From Candidatus Latescibacterota bacterium (lineage in GTDB: Bacteria; Latescibacterota; UBA2968; GCA-2709665): a DNA stretch of 64,000 nucleotides. The translations under genes were made by a program, and so were the position numbers. The notes below the pieces were generated by a model. That model was not told the DNA's origin. It did no database searches and saw nothing but the letters and a program-made list of their open reading frames with translations. Where the stretch lies: NCBI GenBank assembly GCA_965222075.1, contig OZ244937.1, positions 1,504,001-1,568,000 of the forward strand, read 5' to 3'. Shown here piece by piece: positions 838 to 59,991 of this stretch (its first letter is position 1; each line of letters opens with the position of its first letter).

Positions 838-2100
838 GTGCCTGAAAGTCTCAAATTCGATGTGCTCGTCTGTGGCGCTGGAAGTGCGGGCGTAGTGGCT
901 GCACTCGCAGCTGCCAGGTGTGGCGCGAAGACCCTGGTGGTCGAACGAGCGCCATTTGCAGGCGGCATCGTAACTGCGGCGGGTCTGCCTTACTTTGACG
1001 GCATCGCACACGCGGAGTCAGAGAAAATCGTGGTCAAAGGCATCCCGCTCGAAATCGCTATTGCGATGAACCTCTGTCGCAAAGGGGATACACACCTGAG
1101 ACCGCACAACCCGCGCATCCGAAATGTGGAGCAATTCAAGCGCTTGACGGACGACCTTCTGACTTCGCACGAAAACCTGCAGGTGCTTTTTCATACATCG
1201 GTCTGCCATGTCGAATCGGAGGGTGGTCGGATCAAACGGGTCATGATCGCAAACAAGGACGGCCTTGTGTCGGTTGAAGCCAGACAGGTCATCGACACAA
1301 CAGGTGACGGAGACATCGCCGCCTGGGCGGGTGCCGAGGTCCAAAAAAACGACCCATTGATGCCAATGACCATGCACTTCCGCGTCGGCCATGTGCAGTG
1401 CAACCAGCCAGGGATCGGCGGGCGTGCGCGGGAACATCTGATCCGCGCCCAGGAGAAAGGCGATCTGCCCATGTTCTACGGCCCCGGTATCAATTTCGCC
1501 TTTGCCGACGACGAGGCTTATTTCCATGCGGTTCGCGTCAGGGGCGATGCCACAGACGCTGCTGACCTGACGCGCGCGGAAATACAGGGACGCAAAGACG
1601 CCTGGACCATATTCCGAATCTTAAAAAACAATCTACCCGAATTTAAAGAGGCCTACTTCATCAGCAGCGGCCCCTATATCGGCATTCGAGAAACCCGCCG
1701 ACTGGTCGGCCAGATCGTTCTCACAGAAGATGACATCACACGGGGAAGAACATTCGACGATGCGATTGCCACAGGCTGCTGGTATCTCGACGTACACCCA
1801 AACAAAACAACCCTGGGTTCGGCAAATGAAGCGGCGCACGTGCAACCCGACCCCTATGACATTCCGTATCGGGCACTGTTGCCGAAGGAAATTTCAAACC
1901 TGATCGTAGCAGGACGATGTCACTCGGCAACTGCCGGCGCTGCGAGTTCCACGCGTGTGAACGTAACGGCAATGGCAATGGGCCAGGCTGCAGGAACGGC
2001 GGCTGCACGTGCGGTTAAAAAAGCGGATGACGTGGGATTGCTCAATGGGATAGAAGTCCGGTCCCTTCTCGAAACGCAAGGAGCCGGTCCCGTACCGTGA
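838..2100 (+). CDS. FAD-dependent oxidoreductase (FAD_oxidored/PF12831-like)
   Basis: DVLVCGAGSAG dinucleotide-binding motif, IDTTGDGD, GIRETRR, YDIPYRALLP...NLIVAGRC. GTG start 8 nt after AGGAGG. Confidence 0.9.
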   Translation: MPESLKFDVLVCGAGSAGVVAALAAARCGAKTLVVERAPFAGGIVTAAGLPYFDGIAHAESEKIVVKGIPLEIAIAMNLCRKGDTHLRPHNPRIRNVEQFKRLTDDLLTSHENLQVLFHTSVCHVESEGGRIKRVMIANKDGLVSVEARQVIDTTGDGDIAAWAGAEVQKNDPLMPMTMHFRVGHVQCNQPGIGGRAREHLIRAQEKGDLPMFYGPGINFAFADDEAYFHAVRVRGDATDAADLTRAEIQGRKDAWTIFRILKNNLPEFKEAYFISSGPYIGIRETRRLVGQIVLTEDDITRGRTFDDAIATGCWYLDVHPNKTTLGSANEAAHVQPDPYDIPYRALLPKEISNLIVAGRCHSATAGAASSTRVNVTAMAMGQAAGTAAARAVKKADDVGLLNGIEVRSLLETQGAGPVP

Positions 2101-2117
2101 TGATCGCCGATTTCGGT

Positions 2118-3326
2118 TCATAAATACCGCTCGGCCGTAAACTCGACCTTGAGCTGTCGGCCGTCCATCTCACCCATCGGCAGGCCGGGAACCAGGTGCA
2201 GCGTCTCAAGAGGCAGAATTTCCTGAACCGCCGCCTTGAAGCCCTCTGCAGCGGCCCGATTGCCCGCATATGCGACAACCGAACAAACGTCCGCTGAGGT
2301 CAGCCCCTGCTCGGCCATCACCCCCCCGATACGCTCGACCACCTGGCGGGCCTCTTGTTCGGGCGTTGTCCCAACACGCCCTCGAATTTCACCCGCCTGG
2401 ACGAGCTCCCTATCCCGACTCCGGGCCCTCCGCACAACCAGCGCGTCGTCCATGCCCGCCTTCGGAGGGGGAAGCTGCTCGTGTGTCACCTCTAAATCGC
2501 CGTCGCCAACCATCCCCATCACCTGAATCTCCGTAAACAGCCCCTCCTCCCCCCAGAAATCCACCCCATCGGCAATCAGCATCGTCGGCGGTATGCAGTC
2601 CTCCCAGAACCGCTCCACCTCTTCCCGGACAATTCCGGCGACCTCGGCATTCAGCGTGAACGGACGAAGCCGGACCACGTCTTCCCGCGAGCCGCCGAGT
2701 TCCTCAAAAACCGCCCCGATCATCTCGAACACCCGCCGGACCTGCGCGCGTGGATCGTCCATAAACAGCAACTTGATCTCATCGGTCCATGCCACAACGC
2801 CGGACAGATAAACCACGCGGGCCCCGCCAAAACGGCTGATCACAGCCGGCGCCAGTCCCAGAAACTCCGTATCGTAAAGCGTTTCGGGTTGCACCGCAAC
2901 CTGCTCAAAACTCAACCCGGGTGCTCTGGGGATATATGCTGTCGCCTGAACCCGCGCGCTCCACCGGCTCTCCGAATCGATCCAGGGAAGCGTCGTAATC
3001 GCAGACCGGTACCCCTCGCCGAAGCGGGCAAGCCGCTTGACCCGGATATCGGCCAAATCGTACCCCGCCCCGTGGACCACCGTCCACTCGCCAAACGAGC
3101 GGAAATCCCCGCCGTATCCGGACGCGACCTCCGCAAGCGTCTCACAGATCGCCACGCTCTGCGCGCCGGACCAGGCCTGGGGAACATCCTCAGCATCCAC
3201 ATCCGGAGGCAACCGGGCGCCAAGCCCGTTGACATCGATCCGGACCACCTCGCCCAGATGCGTCTTCTTAACCGCCATCTGTTCTCGAACGTCGGGTGCA
3301 GCAGGTGCTTCATCCGCAACTGTCAA
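2118..3326 (-). CDS. RidA/YjgF-like repeat protein
   Basis: Rid-like segments VYLSGVV...QVRRVFE...GGSREDVVRL...EIQV and a second degenerate copy (QEARQVVERI...GLTSADV...KVEFTA). Confidence 0.6.
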   Translation of the reverse strand: MTVADEAPAAPDVREQMAVKKTHLGEVVRIDVNGLGARLPPDVDAEDVPQAWSGAQSVAICETLAEVASGYGGDFRSFGEWTVVHGAGYDLADIRVKRLARFGEGYRSAITTLPWIDSESRWSARVQATAYIPRAPGLSFEQVAVQPETLYDTEFLGLAPAVISRFGGARVVYLSGVVAWTDEIKLLFMDDPRAQVRRVFEMIGAVFEELGGSREDVVRLRPFTLNAEVAGIVREEVERFWEDCIPPTMLIADGVDFWGEEGLFTEIQVMGMVGDGDLEVTHEQLPPPKAGMDDALVVRRARSRDRELVQAGEIRGRVGTTPEQEARQVVERIGGVMAEQGLTSADVCSVVAYAGNRAAAEGFKAAVQEILPLETLHLVPGLPMGEMDGRQLKVEFTAERYL

Positions 3327-3400
3327 AACAGATTCTCCTCAAGAAAAGCATCAGCTGACACATCAGCGCCAAATCGCACGTCCGGGTCACGCGCGACTTT

Positions 3401-5413
3401 TTAATAAAACTTATGCACCCGATGTCCCTGGTACGGAAACCAGATCGCGTCCACCGCCACCCCCGCAGCCACCGCGAGAACATATCCCACCAGCATGCCG
3501 ATGAAAAACGGCATCGACTTCCGGTAGAACGCCGCTCCGCCGGCTTTGAGCATAACGAGCTTGATCAGCCAGGCTACGAAAAACGCGGAACTCGTCCGCC
3601 TCACCAGCCCCGTGCCCGAAAGCGCGAATCCGATTGGATGAATCGGCCACCGGGTGAAGCGATAGCGCAACAGGTTCAGGAGGACCATCACAGCGGCCCC
3701 GGCCAGGAAAAACCAGGTGTTGCCTGTCTCCATCGGCTTGGGAGAGATGATATCGCTCACAGTCCACCGATACTCCCGCGCCCCCGAAATGATGATGATA
3801 TAGTTGGGCCGGAAGTTATAGCCCCCGATCGTGTAGCCCAGCCAGACCGTGTAGAGCGTGGAGAGAACCACCCCCACGGCGAACGCCATCCCCAGCCCCC
3901 AGAAGAGCCGCCGTTTATCCCCGTGCACGAAATCGCCCAGCCGGTTGACGTGGGCCATTGCCACCAGGCCGAACCCCTTATGGTGGCTGAGCGCAAATGC
4001 CGACAGCCTCAGGGCCACGTGCGAAGACGCGTTTAGATTCTTCCCACCGCCCAGGATGGCCGTGGCCAGGGATGATGCGGTGAATCCCCCTGCCGAGGCC
4101 GGCAGGCTGGCATAGATAAATCCTGAATCCGCCACAATCTTCGCCAGACCGGTATAAACCAGGAGCATCGCAGGAACCAGCAGAAAAATCAGCTGTGTCT
4201 CCGCGCCCAGTTGCCAGAGCCAGGCGATAATGTAGAAACAACTGACAGCCAGACCGATAAATGCCCCTCGGTAAGACAGCAGCTCCCGGCTGTCGTCAAC
4301 GGGCGAACGGTCCGGATGCAGGGCCTTTCTGAAGGCGTCGCGAAGGTGGTGCCGGGCCACCCAGAGTCCCCAGAGCACGAGGGCCACAAAGGCGCCCGTC
4401 GTCTGCCACATAAAACGCCCTGCTCCCCAGTAAGGGGTACTCACCGGGATCCCGATCCGGTTCAGCGCACCCCCTTCGAGGATAAACAGCACATCGGACA
4501 GCCAGAGACTGAAGAGAACCTCTAAGCTGGCGAAATAGGAAAAGCAGATCACAACCGTGCTCACAAAGACCCACAGGGGCGGGTAGGCCCTGGGGAGCTT
4601 GATCCACACCCCACCCGCCGTTGGAAACTTTGGAAACGTCGGGTAGAACCAGGCGATCATATTCCACCAGAAAATGAACGAGATCAGCGCAAACCCCGTC
4701 CAGAACGCCCTCCCCTTCATAAACCCCGGCAGCCCGCGCCTCCCGGTTCCCACCTGCGTGGTCATCTCCACGATCGGAATCATCGCCGGATAGACCAGCC
4801 GCTCGTTCGCCGACCACTGCCGGTGCAGCAGAATCGAGACACACGCGCATGCCAGCCCCGCGGCAAAGGCCAACGTGAACCACCAGATCAGCGGCACGGC
4901 CCACACGTCCCAGGGAATCGAAACCCCCTGTGGAAGTCCCTCATAGAACCAGGTCATCGCCCTGGTTTCGTCTGAGGGAACCATCCAGCCCGGCAGGTGG
5001 GAGTGCAGGTACTCCGCCCACTGGTTCTCCGGCGTCGCAAAGTAGTAAGGGGCCACCATCAGACTGACAATGTACCCGCTTACCCCGTAGGTTGGCCCCA
5101 GCGCGCTGATAAATCCCATGCTGAAGATCGTAACCCACTCGGACGGAGAGAAAAGCAACCGCCTGCCGAACCGCCGGGCCAGCGCAGTGCATCCCAGGAT
5201 TGAAAGCAGAAAGAGAATCAGGTTCGCCATCGGCACGTGGCTGTAGGCCATAAACGACCCGTGCGGTACGTAGAGCACCGTATTGGCCAGCAGGTTCACC
5301 GCGATGGCGAGACAGAGCCCGAAGCCGATCGACCGCAGCGTCACGCCCCGCTCCCGCACACCCTCTTCTCCGGGAACCGGGCCAATTTGCATTTTGCAAT
5401 TTGCAATTCCCAT
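3401..5413 (-). CDS. Polytopic membrane protein, DUF6785/DUF6784-like (putative transporter)
   Basis: Many TM helices. Motifs GVTLRSI, PYYFATPENQW, RQWSANERLVYP, WPIHPIG, PFFIG. Start uncertain (5419/5413). Confidence 0.8.
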   Translation of the reverse strand: MGIANCKMQIGPVPGEEGVRERGVTLRSIGFGLCLAIAVNLLANTVLYVPHGSFMAYSHVPMANLILFLLSILGCTALARRFGRRLLFSPSEWVTIFSMGFISALGPTYGVSGYIVSLMVAPYYFATPENQWAEYLHSHLPGWMVPSDETRAMTWFYEGLPQGVSIPWDVWAVPLIWWFTLAFAAGLACACVSILLHRQWSANERLVYPAMIPIVEMTTQVGTGRRGLPGFMKGRAFWTGFALISFIFWWNMIAWFYPTFPKFPTAGGVWIKLPRAYPPLWVFVSTVVICFSYFASLEVLFSLWLSDVLFILEGGALNRIGIPVSTPYWGAGRFMWQTTGAFVALVLWGLWVARHHLRDAFRKALHPDRSPVDDSRELLSYRGAFIGLAVSCFYIIAWLWQLGAETQLIFLLVPAMLLVYTGLAKIVADSGFIYASLPASAGGFTASSLATAILGGGKNLNASSHVALRLSAFALSHHKGFGLVAMAHVNRLGDFVHGDKRRLFWGLGMAFAVGVVLSTLYTVWLGYTIGGYNFRPNYIIIISGAREYRWTVSDIISPKPMETGNTWFFLAGAAVMVLLNLLRYRFTRWPIHPIGFALSGTGLVRRTSSAFFVAWLIKLVMLKAGGAAFYRKSMPFFIGMLVGYVLAVAAGVAVDAIWFPYQGHRVHKFY
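5385..5408. repeat. Short heptamer tandem repeat (TTTGCAA/TTTGCAT x3)
   Basis: aatttgcattttgcaatttgcaatt at the 5' end of the DUF6785-like gene. Confidence 0.5.
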
Positions 5414-55217: not shown

Positions 55218-56430
55218 ATGAAAGCCTGTCATCTTATCGCCTTCATCACGGCCTGCTGCCTTTCTCTTCCGGCTTCCGCCGGCGAAGTCGAGATCGACCG
55301 GGAGCGCATGCAGCAGGATCTGAACATCATGGAAGGCATCCTGCAAAACCTGCACGCCCAGAACACCCCCTTCATAACCGGTATCCATCGAGAACCGCAC
55401 GTGCGGGGATTGTACTTTGAAAACTACGGGGTAATCTTTCTGATAGAAGAACGCCGTCCAGCAGGAATCAGATTCACCCTCACCCTGGGATCTTTTGAGT
55501 CGGCCGCAGAGGCGTCCAAGAAGCATGAGGGAGGCGATGTCGTAAAGGACATCAGGGCGCAACGGGAGAAAAGACGCGTTGCCTTCCAGGATCGGCTCGG
55601 CGAATTTTTGGGCACGTACGCGGATGCGATCCGCCAGTTGAAAGACGAAGACCGCATCACGATCCTGGTCCATTACCAACCTCTTTCTCCTATCTCCAAA
55701 GAAGCTTTAGACCATATACCGGAACTCCAGGCAGTCGCTAAACAGCTGGATAGTCTCAAATCTCCCCGAAAGGGGCGGAAGATCCAAAAAAAACACCTCT
55801 ACCGCGTGTTGTCGGAACCGGTTTACTCAGAGGTTACGGCAAAAAAGCGCGATATCGTAGCCTACCGCCGCGAGCGCATCAGCGAGGCGGAGTTTCGCAA
55901 GCGGATCGTCTCTCGCGAGCACAAGCCGGATGCTTCCACGATAAAAAAGATCGGTGTCCTGGCCACCATCCTGGACAAGGCCCTGAAGCGGCCCGACCAT
56001 CTGGCCCGGGATTTCAACAAGACCCTGGGCATATACCAGGAAGGGTTGGGGGCCCTCTTCTTCGTGAACGCGGGAAGCGGGTACCGTACGGACCATCCTG
56101 TGTTCAAAAACAAAACAAAAGAGCTCAGGTTGCCGATCCATCGTCGTAGACAGGGGCAAGGAAGAAAGTCAAATCCAGGATCGGTTCAAGGAAGACCTGG
56201 TCAATGTGGTGGGAGATTACGGCTATTCCCTGCGCACCCTCAAACCCCAGGAATACATCGTGGTCGAAGTTCGCTTTCCGGAAGCGTTGTGGAGCGGCTG
56301 GTCGGACCCGCCCTGGTCGGACCCGCGGGGGCTTGTGCTGAAGGTGCGGAAGAAGGATGTGGATGCCTATACCCGGGAGGACCTCGACCTGGCAGCGTTT
56401 CGCCAGAAAGTGGATATCCAGGAATTTTAA
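55218..56430 (+). pseudogene. Exported hypothetical protein of the ECF operon, split by one frameshift near 56080-56150
   Basis: Signal peptide; internal two-fold repeat (GLYFENYGVIF / GIYQEGLGALF; LGTYADAIRQLK / VGDYGYSLRTLK). The second repeat finishes in a different frame. Confidence 0.7.
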
Positions 56431-57038
56431 GCCCCTCACGCATCTCGCCTCCCCCGCCTTCGGGTCGCCTTTTCAGCGTGTCCGGTTCCCCGGACCAAAT
56501 CTCCGTCAACCAAACCCTATTGGGAGCCCAAACGAAGTTCCGGCAAACGATCATAAGGTAGCTTGCCCGACCCTGGCGTGCGTAAATTGCCTTGACAGAG
56601 ACTCCAAAAGGGGCTTTATTAAACCTAAACTTGGGGAACCTTCGCCTACCTGTTAGCGTCGGACGGGTAGGACCAGAAGAATTCGCCGTTTCTGCGCGTG
56701 GAGACAAGCATATCTGTGTTCGGAACGGACGTTCCTTGCAAAGGTCACGATCGGGTTTACTCGGGGAGTTCGACTATTTGGTGTCTTGTCCCCTCAGGAG
56801 TTCACCAGAGTGCACTCGTCGAATTTACGGTGCAAGGATGGGCCGAGGGCCGGAATTCTCCTGCGGCTACTGCGAGCAAGATTGAGCGCCCGCCTCGCCT
56901 TTATCAGTCGGCTATATATTTGTACAGAACAGCAATCTTGACTTGGAGCAAATCAGTGACATCTTCAACTGAATCGCCCAGTGATCCTTGTAGCGCTAAC
57001 CGCCAACCATCGCACGATCTTCATCTCGTTCAGATACA

Positions 57039-57793
57039 ATGAAGAGATACCCCAAGGCACCAGTATCCGAGGTTATCTTTGGCGTGACCTTTTCAGAGAA
57101 ACGCCTATCAATAAGGGACCTGTTTGACGGCCAGCAGGCCCTATCGGACAAATACCCGCGAGTGGAGATCCGTCCCCCCTTGTCGACGAATGGATGTCAG
57201 GATTCCAGATCACCCAGGACCTGAATCCTGACAGGACGGGGGCTGTCCTTATTCGTCTGCGCAGCGACGACGACAATTGGATGTGCCAAATACAAGCGAA
57301 TAAAGTCTACCTCAACTGGATTCGCCCAGACCATGAACCAGTCGGCAACTATCCTGGTTACACCGCCGTTTATCGTAAATTCGGTGACTTACTTAATGCC
57401 CTGAGCCTTGGTTTCTCAGAATTCACCTCGGATTCAGTCAAATACTACGACCTCACCTATCACGATCGTCTCGAGTGGCAGGAGTACATTGACAGCCTGA
57501 GTGATGCCTACAAGATCATGCGGTTCAGGCCTCCGGAGATCGAGACTCCGGAGGGGCTCAACAACTCATTCTCACGTTATACCTACAGCTATGATTCCCT
57601 GGGCGGATATGGCATTTTTGCCGTGAACACGGCCACTGCCGCCACGGGAAAACAGGTTCTGCAGCTCGAGAGCACCCTTCGTGGTATCACCCCACATCAG
57701 TCGAGTGACGCCTGGTTCAACGCGGCACACATGGTCCAGTACGATCATTTCAGCAGAATTTTCACACCGGAGATTCTTGAACAATGGGCCTAG
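57039..57793 (+). CDS. TIGR04255-like protein, frameshifted at a C6 run (57174-57179)
   Basis: YPKAPVSEVIFGVTF start, QIQANKVYLNW, NYPGY, LTYHDRL, WFNAAH..F. One extra C joins the two ORFs (RPPLVDEWM). Confidence 0.7.
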
Positions 57794-58380
57794 ACATAGT
57801 CCAAGTCCCCTACGTGAAAGAGTCGCCATCAGTGTTCAACGATGACAAGGTGGGAGCATTTAATACACCGGAGGCGACTCCTGTTTCGGGTTTCGTGGAG
57901 GAGGTCCGCACCCCCGACACCTCGGATATTTCCTCTTTCGGCGCTGTTAATTATCTTAGTCGTGGCCGGTCAGACGACTGGAAGGAAACCGGACTTCAGA
58001 GTTTCGCCTCTCTCGTGTCCAACAGATTCAGCTATCTCGGGGGGTTGCGGAATCTCGAACGAGATTGGGTTTCCGGAGGTGCCGTCAAGCCATCATCCTC
58101 GGCGATTAGCCTCTCCCAAGAATTGCTTCTCTACATCAGAAAGAAGGTGTCTAGCGAAGAATTCAAACTCATTCCGAGGATAGTTATGGGCCCTATCCCA
58201 AGCGGAGGAATAATCGTTGAACTTCATGCGGATGACGATAATGCAATTAACGTGACTATAACGAACGATGATCGCGTGTACCTGGAGGTTCTATCCGGCG
58301 GCTGCTATTTCGAAGTCAACATATCGGGAAACGAGTTGATCGGCATGGTAACCTCTCAATATGCCTCCATCTCCCGGTAG
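57784..58380 (+). CDS. Hypothetical protein, putative antitoxin
   Basis: Overlaps both neighbours; S/T/P/E-rich N-terminus, then L..L..DW..GA..PS..AI...P.PSGGI..E domain. Confidence 0.6.
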   Translation: MGLDIVQVPYVKESPSVFNDDKVGAFNTPEATPVSGFVEEVRTPDTSDISSFGAVNYLSRGRSDDWKETGLQSFASLVSNRFSYLGGLRNLERDWVSGGAVKPSSSAISLSQELLLYIRKKVSSEEFKLIPRIVMGPIPSGGIIVELHADDDNAINVTITNDDRVYLEVLSGGCYFEVNISGNELIGMVTSQYASISR

Positions 58381-58768
58381 TGTGATTCCGAACGGAGAGG
58401 TGTTATACAGGTGGTGTCGCAGCGATGCCTTTCCGAAAAACCAGGTGGAGATACCCGCCTCGCTGTTTAGTGATATCGAGCTCTCCTGTGACTGGGCGAG
58501 ATTCCGTCCAGATCCTTCGACATCCTTCCACATGGTGGAAGGAAAGACACGAGTGATTGAAATTTCGGTTTGTGACGAGATCAAGAATCCTCGCAATCCC
58601 AAACGAGAGGGCGAGATAGTTGAGGCCTGGAAGCAGCAAGTCATATACGATCCGATTGAGGATCCTGTTCATGGCCCAAACGATGCCCATTCCCTGATAA
58701 AGGGACGCAAGAAAATGGCAGTCCGCGACGCTATCGTCGCGAATTCCAACTGGTGGGATATCGAATAG
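58361..58768 (+). CDS. Small hypothetical protein, possible ADP-ribosyltransferase-fold toxin
   Basis: LYR...F...LSCDW...DP..N.AH..I pattern; overlaps the upstream gene. Confidence 0.55.
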   Translation: MPPSPGSVIPNGEVLYRWCRSDAFPKNQVEIPASLFSDIELSCDWARFRPDPSTSFHMVEGKTRVIEISVCDEIKNPRNPKREGEIVEAWKQQVIYDPIEDPVHGPNDAHSLIKGRKKMAVRDAIVANSNWWDIE

Positions 58769-58984
58769 GAGGCCTTGGCCCCTAACGGTCCTCCAAAGGC
58801 CGCTAATCCCGCGACCTCAAGCATCAGCCTACCTGCAGCAGCTCCAGCCAGTTGCGGGAGCTCGATCGGTTATGCCGCCAGGTGACCTTTCCGAAAGCAG
58901 AGACATCGTCGTATTTCTACCGCAGTTTCGAGTTCATACAAGCACTCCTGTCGCCATTTCATCTCGCCGGTTTTTCTTCCGAAC

Positions 58985-59991
58985 CTACCGCGTCTCCGCC
59001 AGTGAGACAGTCCTTTGTTCCCGCGCTGAGATGGAGACAGCCTCGGCAATCTCGACATCCAGCAGCGCATCCCCGGGGGAATTCCGGGCCTCACCGCGGT
59101 CCTCTATCGCATCCAGAAAGGCCTCTGCCTGCCGGACAAAAGGGGACGGCTCGTTCTCAAAAGCGCGAACCCCGGACCCACCCTCGTGGAAAACGGTAAT
59201 GGAGACGGTGCCGGGCGCAGCCTCCGCATTGGGCACAACCCCTCCCTCCGTGCAGACGAACCGGGTCTGGGCGTCACCCATCCCCTCCGGACCGACATAG
59301 CTTGCCGTTGCCGAAGCGAACGCGCCGTTATCAAACCGATCAGGGCCGCGCAGGTCTCCTCCATTACGTGACCGGGATCCGTATTTCGCTTCCGATTGGC
59401 CATTGCGGACACAGCCGTGGGCCTGCCCAGAATCCAGCGGACAGCATTCAGGTAGCAGTAGCTCAGGTGGGTCAGCGGCATCCCCCCGCTGGCCTCCTGG
59501 TCATAATACCAGGCACAGGGATCCGGGTTCCACAGCGCCATGCTCACGGCCATCACCGGCTCTCCCAGAACGCGGTCCCTCACCAGCCGGTGGATCTCCG
59601 CCCAGGCCGGATCGTACCGGCGCTGGTACCCGGCCTCCACAACCCGCCCGTATCGCCCCGCCAGTTCCACAATCCGGCGTCCATTCTCCACACTGGACGC
59701 CAGACTGCCTCCGATCAGAAGGTCGAACCCGGTTTCCAGGGCCCACAGTGCAATCTCGTCCTGCACCCTGTGAGGGGTCTCGATCAGGACCGCATCCGGC
59801 CCCGCCTCGGCCAGACGGCGGAAGTCATCGCAGGAGACATCACACCCCAGCTCCGCCGCACAGCATCGGGCGCTCTCCACATGCCGGGCGGCCACAGCGC
59901 AGATCTCCGCCCGGCCGGTATCCAGAAACGCCCTGCCCCGAACCCGGGCCATATTTCCCGCCCCGGCAATTGCGATTCGCTTTTTCGGCAT
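58985..59991 (-). pseudogene. Gfo/Idh/MocA oxidoreductase with one frameshift (~59333)
   Basis: IAIAGAG, GYQRRY; one extra T restores LIGFDNGAFASATASY and joins the C-terminal ORF. Confidence 0.82.

Follow-up and report, generated by a model that had tools for sequence, protein, structure and literature searches.

Among described toxin-antitoxin (TA) systems, the closest to the locus analyzed here are the PanAT pairs, in which the antitoxin role of the Panacea domain has been established by experiment (Kurata et al. 2022, PMC8832971). The sections cited from that work and from Ernits et al. 2023 (PMC10440598) describe multidomain PanA proteins in which neutralization is performed by other domains, and the latter study proposes Panacea as a sensor in PanA proteins and raises the actual role of Panacea-type accessory modules as an open question. 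Two further points of comparison are CmdTAC, a toxin-antitoxin-chaperone system that works via chaperone release and antitoxin degradation according to the passages cited from Vassallo et al. 2024 (PMC11618068), and PDC-M32, an uncharacterized PADLOC candidate for which we found a single paper mention, merely as a PADLOC detection (PMC12429752). Here we analyzed a cassette of three genes (gene 1, gene 2, and gene 3) in a 64,000-nucleotide stretch of the genome of a Candidatus Latescibacterota bacterium (positions 1,504,001 to 1,568,000 of contig OZ244937.1; hereafter, the window), a genome that consists of a single 5.36-Mb contig. We consider it fairly likely that these genes form a tripartite TA-like cassette, with gene 3 as effector, gene 2 as its antitoxin, and gene 1, a member of the TIGR04255 family, as an accessory component acting in trans; such a cassette would probably be an abortive-infection or addiction module.

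Gene 2 and gene 3 form a predicted antitoxin-toxin pair

As a preliminary description of this DNA had noted, the listing of open reading frames (ORFs) in the window contains three overlapping plus-strand ORFs at 57039-58768 in a patch of lower G+C content (0.48 to 0.54 over 56800-58750 versus 0.57 to 0.67 on either flank), and the order proposed there, accessory gene, antitoxin gene, and toxin gene, is the one that our analysis supports. Genes 1 and 2 overlap by 10 nucleotides and genes 2 and 3 by 20. Pfam returned no family at E ≤ 1 for gene 2, gene 3, or either piece of gene 1, and genes 2 and 3 had no match in NCBIfam.

When one genome of each species was scanned for gene 3 relatives, 16 loci in five phyla were obtained (spanning Latescibacterota, Sericytochromatia, Spirochaetes, and Gamma- and Betaproteobacteria), and in all 16 the C-terminal domain of gene 2 was encoded directly upstream on the same strand. 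By tblastn, this domain (approximately residues 70 to 190) was detected just upstream of the gene 3 relative in 15 loci; at the 16th (L006), a 172-residue ORF occupies the place of gene 2 and aligns with all of the invariant residues (alignment A6). In five of the 16 loci (L010 and L012 to L015), the gene 2 domain is the C-terminal half of proteins of 280 to 295 residues, the N-terminal half of which is SocA_Panacea (PF13274; E values of 1e-14 to 8e-18), a domain that gene 2 of the window lacks (Pfam, E ≤ 1). Dataset S1 of Kurata et al. 2022 places the pairs of Marinomonas communis DSM 5604 and Neptunomonas antarctica in the predicted PanT cluster T88, as the two T88 rows that we found there, which read 'hypothetical protein' with the order A|T and gaps of -1 and 2, respectively (PMC8832971). 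These gaps equal those that we found at L015 (Marinomonas communis) and L013 (Neptunomonas antarctica). The adjacency at all 16 loci, the fusion to Panacea, the T88 listing, and a kinship to PDC-M32 described below together lead us to predict that gene 2 and gene 3 are an antitoxin and its toxin, in agreement with the antitoxin role first suggested for gene 2 in the preliminary description.

The preliminary description had also pointed to a low-complexity N terminus before a compact domain in gene 2, and our alignment (A6) indeed has a variable, low-complexity segment of approximately 65 to 70 residues before the conserved domain. This tail occurs only in versions that bear TIGR04255, with Panacea at that place otherwise. 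An S-x-F motif is found three times in residues 1 to 65 of the window tail (0.47 expected; p = 0.003), three times in the tail of L009, and six times in that of L007, where it lies inside a tandem repeat, ISFFEDNLxPIYQN (alignment A7); the tails of L005, L006, L008, L011, and L016 were not enriched for it. The motif may serve for docking. The only matches of gene 2 in a sequence search of the PDB were Tctex dynein light chains (E = 0.01).

A TIGR04255 gene precedes the gene 2/gene 3 pair in 11 of the 16 loci (L001 to L009, L011, and L016), the trio thus being kept together there, and none of the five genomes with the Panacea form has a TIGR04255 gene anywhere. Four related genomes carry the cassette in syntenic position, where its DNA identity is 81 to 87% versus 71 to 79% for the flanks, and it is inherited within this Latescibacterota lineage.

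Gene 3 is predicted to adopt an ADP-ribosyltransferase fold

A word-indexed search gave 57 clusters of gene 3 homologues, none of them named, and an exhaustive search of 1.84 billion representatives with a gene 3 profile gave 80 clusters at E ≤ 1e-3, including 31 at E ≤ 1e-10. Pfam assigned no meaningful family to 30 distant gene 3 relatives, matches in the ESM Atlas were hypothetical clusters only, and gene 3 was unmatched in a sequence search of the PDB. The LYR, LF, LSCDW, DP, and NDAH pattern on which the preliminary description had remarked is present in gene 3 and mostly conserved across 31 diverse relatives. Among these relatives, S42, P98, H110, G115, and K117 are invariant and I9, D44, Q92, and N107 nearly so, with R17 usual but not invariant.

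The AlphaFold2 model of gene 3 (predicted local distance difference test score [pLDDT] of 95; predicted template modeling score of 0.88) was compared with known structures by VIA-align, a wide search independent of Foldseek. Among 48,161 chains, the model matched KptA (Z of 6.9), mouse Tpt1 (6.2), Tse2 (5.6), and AvrPphF (5.2), and nearly all of the 50 matches listed are proteins that we recognize as having the ADP-ribosyltransferase (ART) fold. Further VIA-align comparisons gave 14 Tpt1/KptA entries (Z of 5.8 to 7.2; 87 to 92 residues aligned; root mean square deviation [rmsd] of 2.8 to 3.8), the best of which had a Z of 7.2 over 87 residues with an rmsd of 2.8, and all 48 listed rows with a Z of at least 2 were ART-fold proteins, supporting the fold that had been proposed for gene 3 from its sequence. 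The whole of gene 3 aligns to approximately residues 84 to 181 of the Tpt1/KptA enzymes, which we take to be their NAD (nicotinamide adenine dinucleotide) lobe. The top rows of a Foldseek search of the PDB, weak as they are, were RhsP2, Tne2, Tpt1, a RES toxin, and PARPs. Canonical ART catalytic triads are R-S-E or H-Y-E/D, and the mostly conserved R17 and the invariant S42 fit the first two positions of the former.

Several results weigh against this assignment. The Z scores of the ART-fold matches are intermediate (at most 7.2), and a Z under 8 can mean a common arrangement alone; therefore, support for the fold comes from the consistency of the match list. Foldseek found no match to the gene 3 model at E ≤ 1e-3 in the PDB, and none at this threshold in BFVD, where the top row was a mycobacteriophage ADP-ribosyltransferase (E = 0.05). 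An hhalign comparison of the gene 3 family profile (A5) with a KptA alignment (A8) gave a probability of 0.1. Furthermore, gene 3 relatives have no conserved Glu at the catalytic place of the R-S-E and H-Y-E triads, the conserved set being R17, S42, D44, Q92, N107, H110, and K117 instead. Taken together, these analyses give moderate support, not proof, that gene 3 is an ART-fold protein of a new, noncanonical family, and we infer that it uses NAD.

Gene 1 is an intact TIGR04255 gene

In the window, gene 1 is split between two frames, and both pieces match NCBIfam TIGR04255: the 61-residue piece at positions 1 to 49 (E = 2.8e-5; 24 bits) and the 199-residue piece at positions 65 to 251 (E = 6.6e-10; 39.2 bits, with a cutoff of 30). 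The intact orthologue at L001 scores 70.7 bits, above the 30-bit cutoff, and has no Pfam family. The window has a run of six C residues where L001 and L002 have seven in the DNA alignment. We compared Logan contigs from four public sequencing runs with the window over 56900-58900 and found an extra C after 57173 at the full depth of all covering contigs in X1 (25.9 of 25.9), X3 (41.4 of 41.4), and X5 (9.75 of 9.75) and in the RNA library X10 (3.4 of 3.4). Because every covering contig from the four runs carries the extra C, gene 1 is intact in nature and encodes 251 residues, and the frameshift is a homopolymer assembly error. What appeared to be a pseudogene, a repaired form of which figured in the rescue test of the preliminary description, thus needs no repair. 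Consistent with these findings, gene 1 orthologues are intact in four related Latescibacterota genomes (251 to 253 residues), and the near-identical protein P0097, which the actual gene 1 product resembles, has 251 residues. In other assemblies, gene 1 relatives P0113 and P0116 were called at 197 to 199 residues, with the start Met of the truncated piece in the window, and the same homopolymer may have been miscalled there.

The AlphaFold2 model of P0097 (pLDDT of 92.5) is a two-lobed alpha+beta protein. ESM Atlas matches of gene 1 were hypothetical or TIGR04255 clusters only, and a PDB search with the TIGR04255 profile gave nothing credible. No paper with the name TIGR04255 or its aliases (IPR026349) was found in open full text, a search that extended neither to supplements nor to papers that are not open. 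Across 37 TIGR04255 members, the invariant or near-invariant polar residues are E11, R73, Q84, Q86, N88, N93, R96, D98, D143, and R144. A prediction of a complex between gene 1 (A4) and gene 2 (A7) gave a score of 0.11 against a mark of 0.32, which, without controls, speaks neither for nor against binding.

TIGR04255 is the first gene of many three-gene cassettes

Of 168 genomes of the phylum to which the window belongs, 45 have TIGR04255; the same search detected it in 0 of 14 control genomes. We examined what surrounds 30 of the phylum's TIGR04255 genes, using ORF lists made by our own script, without a gene caller. In 29 of them, TIGR04255 is followed by two overlapping or abutting ORFs on the same strand; L030 has one such ORF. 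Addition of a further cassette, L048, gave 31 cassettes, the third genes of which fall into 11 BLAST clusters. The gene 3 family of the window accounts for four of these third genes, with three more distant members recognized by hidden Markov model, and among the remaining clusters are HEPN (Pfam, E = 1.3e-5), DUF7689, and several families that are unknown. Clustering of the middle genes follows that of the third genes, and the two covary as pairs. Since third and middle genes are exchanged as pairs behind TIGR04255, TIGR04255 is the constant first gene of these cassettes.

The flanks of these cassettes are mixed and include a DNA methylase (L027 and L032), Fic (L038), PIN (L039), and AAA_14/DUF4143 (L041), with further cassettes adjoined by housekeeping genes. 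L048 (G000:C1:952500-958500, 2088-3854, minus strand) is a second TIGR04255 three-gene cassette in the same genome as the window; its genes encode 272, 188, and 127 residues, its third gene is of a family different from gene 3, and it adjoins a fragment of a type I restriction-modification specificity domain (Methylase_S, E = 1.5e-5). At L005 (1910-2689), in Sericytochromatia, a gene for a HipA-like kinase (PF20613, E = 9.2e-8), a further neighbor of TA type, is found two genes upstream of the cassette headed by TIGR04255.

These observations suggest a broader, more tentative proposal, to which we give somewhat less than an even chance: TIGR04255 may be the unrecognized hub of a large modular class of three-gene TA or defense cassettes, acting in trans as Panacea does in cis and controlling the antitoxin, and the cassette in the window would be one member with a minimal noncanonical ART-fold toxin related to the Tpt1 NAD lobe. 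Such a hub would serve many mutually unrelated antitoxin-toxin couples, with ART-like, HEPN, DUF7689, and several unknown putative toxins, and would sense a trigger, e.g., phage infection.

Proposed mechanism and alternative explanations

In the tripartite TA-like cassette that we favor, gene 3 would be the effector, a minimal ART-fold enzyme resembling the NAD-binding lobe of Tpt1/KptA that would either degrade NAD+ or transfer ADP-ribose from it to a target of the cell or of a phage, which may be a nucleic acid. The C-terminal domain of gene 2 would bind gene 3 and neutralize it directly, as in a type II system ('linear neutralization'). Gene 1 would be supplied in trans where the proteobacterial versions have Panacea in cis and may act on the disordered N-terminal tail of gene 2 as a sensor or regulator that times toxin release.

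Some findings count against this proposal. TIGR04255 is a family without known function, and the fold matches of gene 1 are weak (Z of at most 7.5; template modeling scores of 0.24 to 0.37). The nearest neighbors of the cassette are housekeeping-type genes (ECF [extracytoplasmic function] sigma and anti-sigma factors, an oxidoreductase, and a multiheme cytochrome), and its surroundings in the window are no defense island. Gene 3 was unmatched in 72,556 plasmids and 50,697 phages and had a single match in IMG/VR, which is the Neptunomonas pair. Contigs of the RNA library X10 overlie parts of genes 1, 2, and 3, one of them spanning the gene 2/gene 3 junction, which speaks for the proposal, but these contigs, although compatible with expression, are no proof of transcription. 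In Dataset S1, T88 is marked 'notest', with the HHpred entry NoHit in the Neptunomonas row and NoTest in the Marinomonas row (PMC8832971).

An alternative that we regard as unlikely is that genes 2 and 3 are an ordinary type II pair and that TIGR04255 is a DNA-binding autoregulator or a sensor of foreign DNA through a saddle like that of TATA-box binding protein (TBP), comparable to third-gene TA regulators. Foldseek gave 34 PDB matches of the gene 1 model at E ≤ 1e-3, comprising AdoMetDC/prozyme, McsB, and mostly TBPs (probability of 0.97 to 0.99), and VIA-align also matched TBP (Z of 5.3 across 147 to 160 residues). In addition, neither gene 2 nor its relatives have a recognizable DNA-binding domain, so a separate regulator would be sensible. 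However, the template modeling scores to TBP are only 0.24 to 0.40, the rmsd to TBP is 9 to 12 Å, and McsB and guanidino kinases outscore TBP in VIA-align (Z of 7.5 and 7.0). Moreover, Panacea, which replaces TIGR04255, is argued in the cited part of Ernits et al. 2023 not to be a transcriptional regulator in PanA (PMC10440598).

The guanidino kinases themselves raise an explanation that seems to us quite unlikely, in which TIGR04255 is an ATP-using enzyme like guanidino kinases or glutamine synthetase that covalently modifies either one of the two TA proteins (antitoxin or toxin) or a phage protein, in which case regulation would be enzymatic, like that of type VII TA systems. The top VIA-align rows of gene 1 are the McsB kinase domain (Z of 7.5; 181 residues) and taurocyamine/arginine kinases (7.0, 5.9, and 5.1), with AdoMetDC, TBP, Mediator Med18/20, GCL, glutamine synthetase, PafA, and Dop in lower rows, and the ten polar residues listed above would suit an enzyme. 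Nevertheless, all Z scores are under 8, the rmsd is 4.2 to 5.2 Å, and no Pfam kinase or ligase family is matched by sequence.

The preliminary description had modeled the locus on CmdTAC, with gene 1 as a SecB-like chaperone, an explanation that we now hold to be improbable. The number of genes, the ART-fold toxin, and the mode of action of CmdTAC outlined above would fit, as would the disordered antitoxin tail, which is present only where gene 1 is and in which S-x-F recurs in some lineages. On the other side, gene 1 and its intact orthologue match no Pfam family, that of SecB included, and the gene 1 model is nearest to McsB/guanidino kinases, AdoMetDC, and TBP. SecB was not among the 50 matches listed by Foldseek or by VIA-align for gene 1, an absence that in itself is no evidence. 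In PADLOC-DB at E ≤ 1, genes 1 and 3 likewise matched no model and gene 2 matched PDC-M32A alone, with the presence of CmdTAC models in this PADLOC version unchecked, and the kinship to CmdTAC finds no support there.

Finally, the idea that there is no conflict system and that gene 3 is a housekeeping Tpt1-like NAD-dependent enzyme modifying RNA or nucleotides, with two partners, draws on the tRNA 2'-phosphotransferases as nearest structures and on the vertical, syntenic conservation of the cassette in the four related genomes but is highly improbable given that the N-terminal RNA lobe of Tpt1 has no counterpart in gene 3, that the genome encodes its own full-length KptA elsewhere (G000 C1:1077723-1078187), that the distribution across phyla is sporadic, and that the fusion to a Panacea antitoxin and the exchange of third genes for HEPN indicate a toxin role. 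The tripartite TA-like cassette is our preferred explanation.

Features and genomic context of the cassette

The features of the cassette are collected in Table 1. The genes on both flanks likewise have frameshifts when compared with intact orthologues, probably through further assembly indels: the upstream gene (55218-56427, plus strand) changes from frame 3 to frame 1 near 56117-56173, and the Gfo/Idh/MocA gene on the other flank (58994-59991, minus strand) changes from frame -2 to frame -1 near 59335. In two related genomes (L001, 5434-9080; L004, 5436-8971), approximately 3.5 kb of additional DNA lies between the cassette and the oxidoreductase gene and holds a minus-strand ORF of 959 to 1170 residues that the window does not have. 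Rfam gave no match at E ≤ 0.1 over 56000-59500, no sigma-70-like promoter was matched around the cassette, and terminator-like sites there were no commoner than in shuffled sequences. The Neptunomonas Panacea/T88 pair is also present on a contig of 14 kb that IMG/VR classes as viral (L049), and L013 has upstream a fragment that, judged by eye, resembles a tyrosine recombinase.

Table 1. Positions of the cassette features in the window
Feature	Position	Strand	Product or basis
Gene 1, TIGR04255 family, putative accessory or hub component	57039..57793	+	Two frames in the window; actual product of 251 residues
Gene 1, piece 1	57039-57224	+	61 residues
Gene 1, piece 2	57194-57793	+	199 residues; different frame from the 61-residue piece
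C6 homopolymer causing the apparent frameshift in gene 1 (true sequence, C7)	57174..57179	+	Alignment with L001 and L002; run contigs
Gene 2, whole	57784-58380	+	198 residues
Gene 2, N-terminal tail (approximately residues 1-69), variable, low complexity, recurrent S-x-F	57784..57990	+	Alignment A6; motif count
Gene 2, C-terminal domain (approximately residues 70-198), putatively toxin neutralizing	57991..58380	+	Constant pairing with gene 3 relatives
Gene 3, predicted ART-fold protein, putative toxin, predicted PanT T88 family	58361..58768	+	135 residues; homologues, AlphaFold2 model, fold searches, Dataset S1

Comparison with described systems

As a TA module, the cassette is of a kind already known; what appears to be new is the fold assignment of the toxin and the place of TIGR04255 as a general hub of such cassettes. 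If confirmed, these findings would give the orphan predicted toxin family PanT T88, which is related to PDC-M32B, a fold and a hypothesis of NAD-dependent chemistry and would give TIGR04255, a curated family without a function, a concrete genomic role.

The Tpt1/KptA NAD lobe is the top structural match across the entire length of gene 3, in all 14 entries. Gene 3 differs from these enzymes in its conserved residues, in the lack of profile-level sequence similarity, and in having no counterpart of their N-terminal RNA-binding lobe. With CmdTAC, the cassette shares three genes, a predicted ART-fold effector, and an antitoxin whose additional tail possibly depends on a third protein, whereas gene 1 is not recognizably SecB-like. 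The gene order is reversed relative to that of CmdTAC, and the tail is N-terminal.

A sequence relationship links the cassette to PDC-M32. The C-terminal domains of gene 2 and of its relatives match the C terminus of PDC-M32A (E values of 2.6e-4 to 2.9e-8; for gene 2 of the window, the C-terminal 75 positions at E = 2.6e-4 and 17.9 bits), and a distant gene 3 relative (L031) matches PDC-M32B (E = 1.8e-6). In contrast, gene 3 of the window is unmatched to PDC-M32B, just approximately 75 to 105 of the 375 positions of PDC-M32A are matched, and PDC-M32 consists of two genes without a TIGR04255 component.

The closest relationship is to the T88 pairs of PanAT. The preliminary description had recognized no named system in this arrangement, which holds for the three genes together but not for the toxin family, already listed as predicted PanT T88 and with distant relatives in PDC-M32. 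Gene 3 is 48 to 50% identical to both T88 toxins (E values of 1e-38 to 1e-39), and the ART fold predicted here from models is a new assignment for this toxin family. As in the T88 pairs, the antitoxin gene comes first and the genes overlap, and gene 2 and those PanA proteins have homologous C-terminal domains. By the listing of PanT clusters, gene 3 belongs with PanAT; by the Panacea domain, gene 2 does not, the antitoxin of the window having a disordered tail in place of Panacea and a separate TIGR04255 gene upstream. This exchange bears on the question that Ernits et al. 2023 raised about accessory modules, and, if confirmed, a single antitoxin domain served by Panacea in cis in some genomes and by TIGR04255 in trans in others would constitute a natural experiment.

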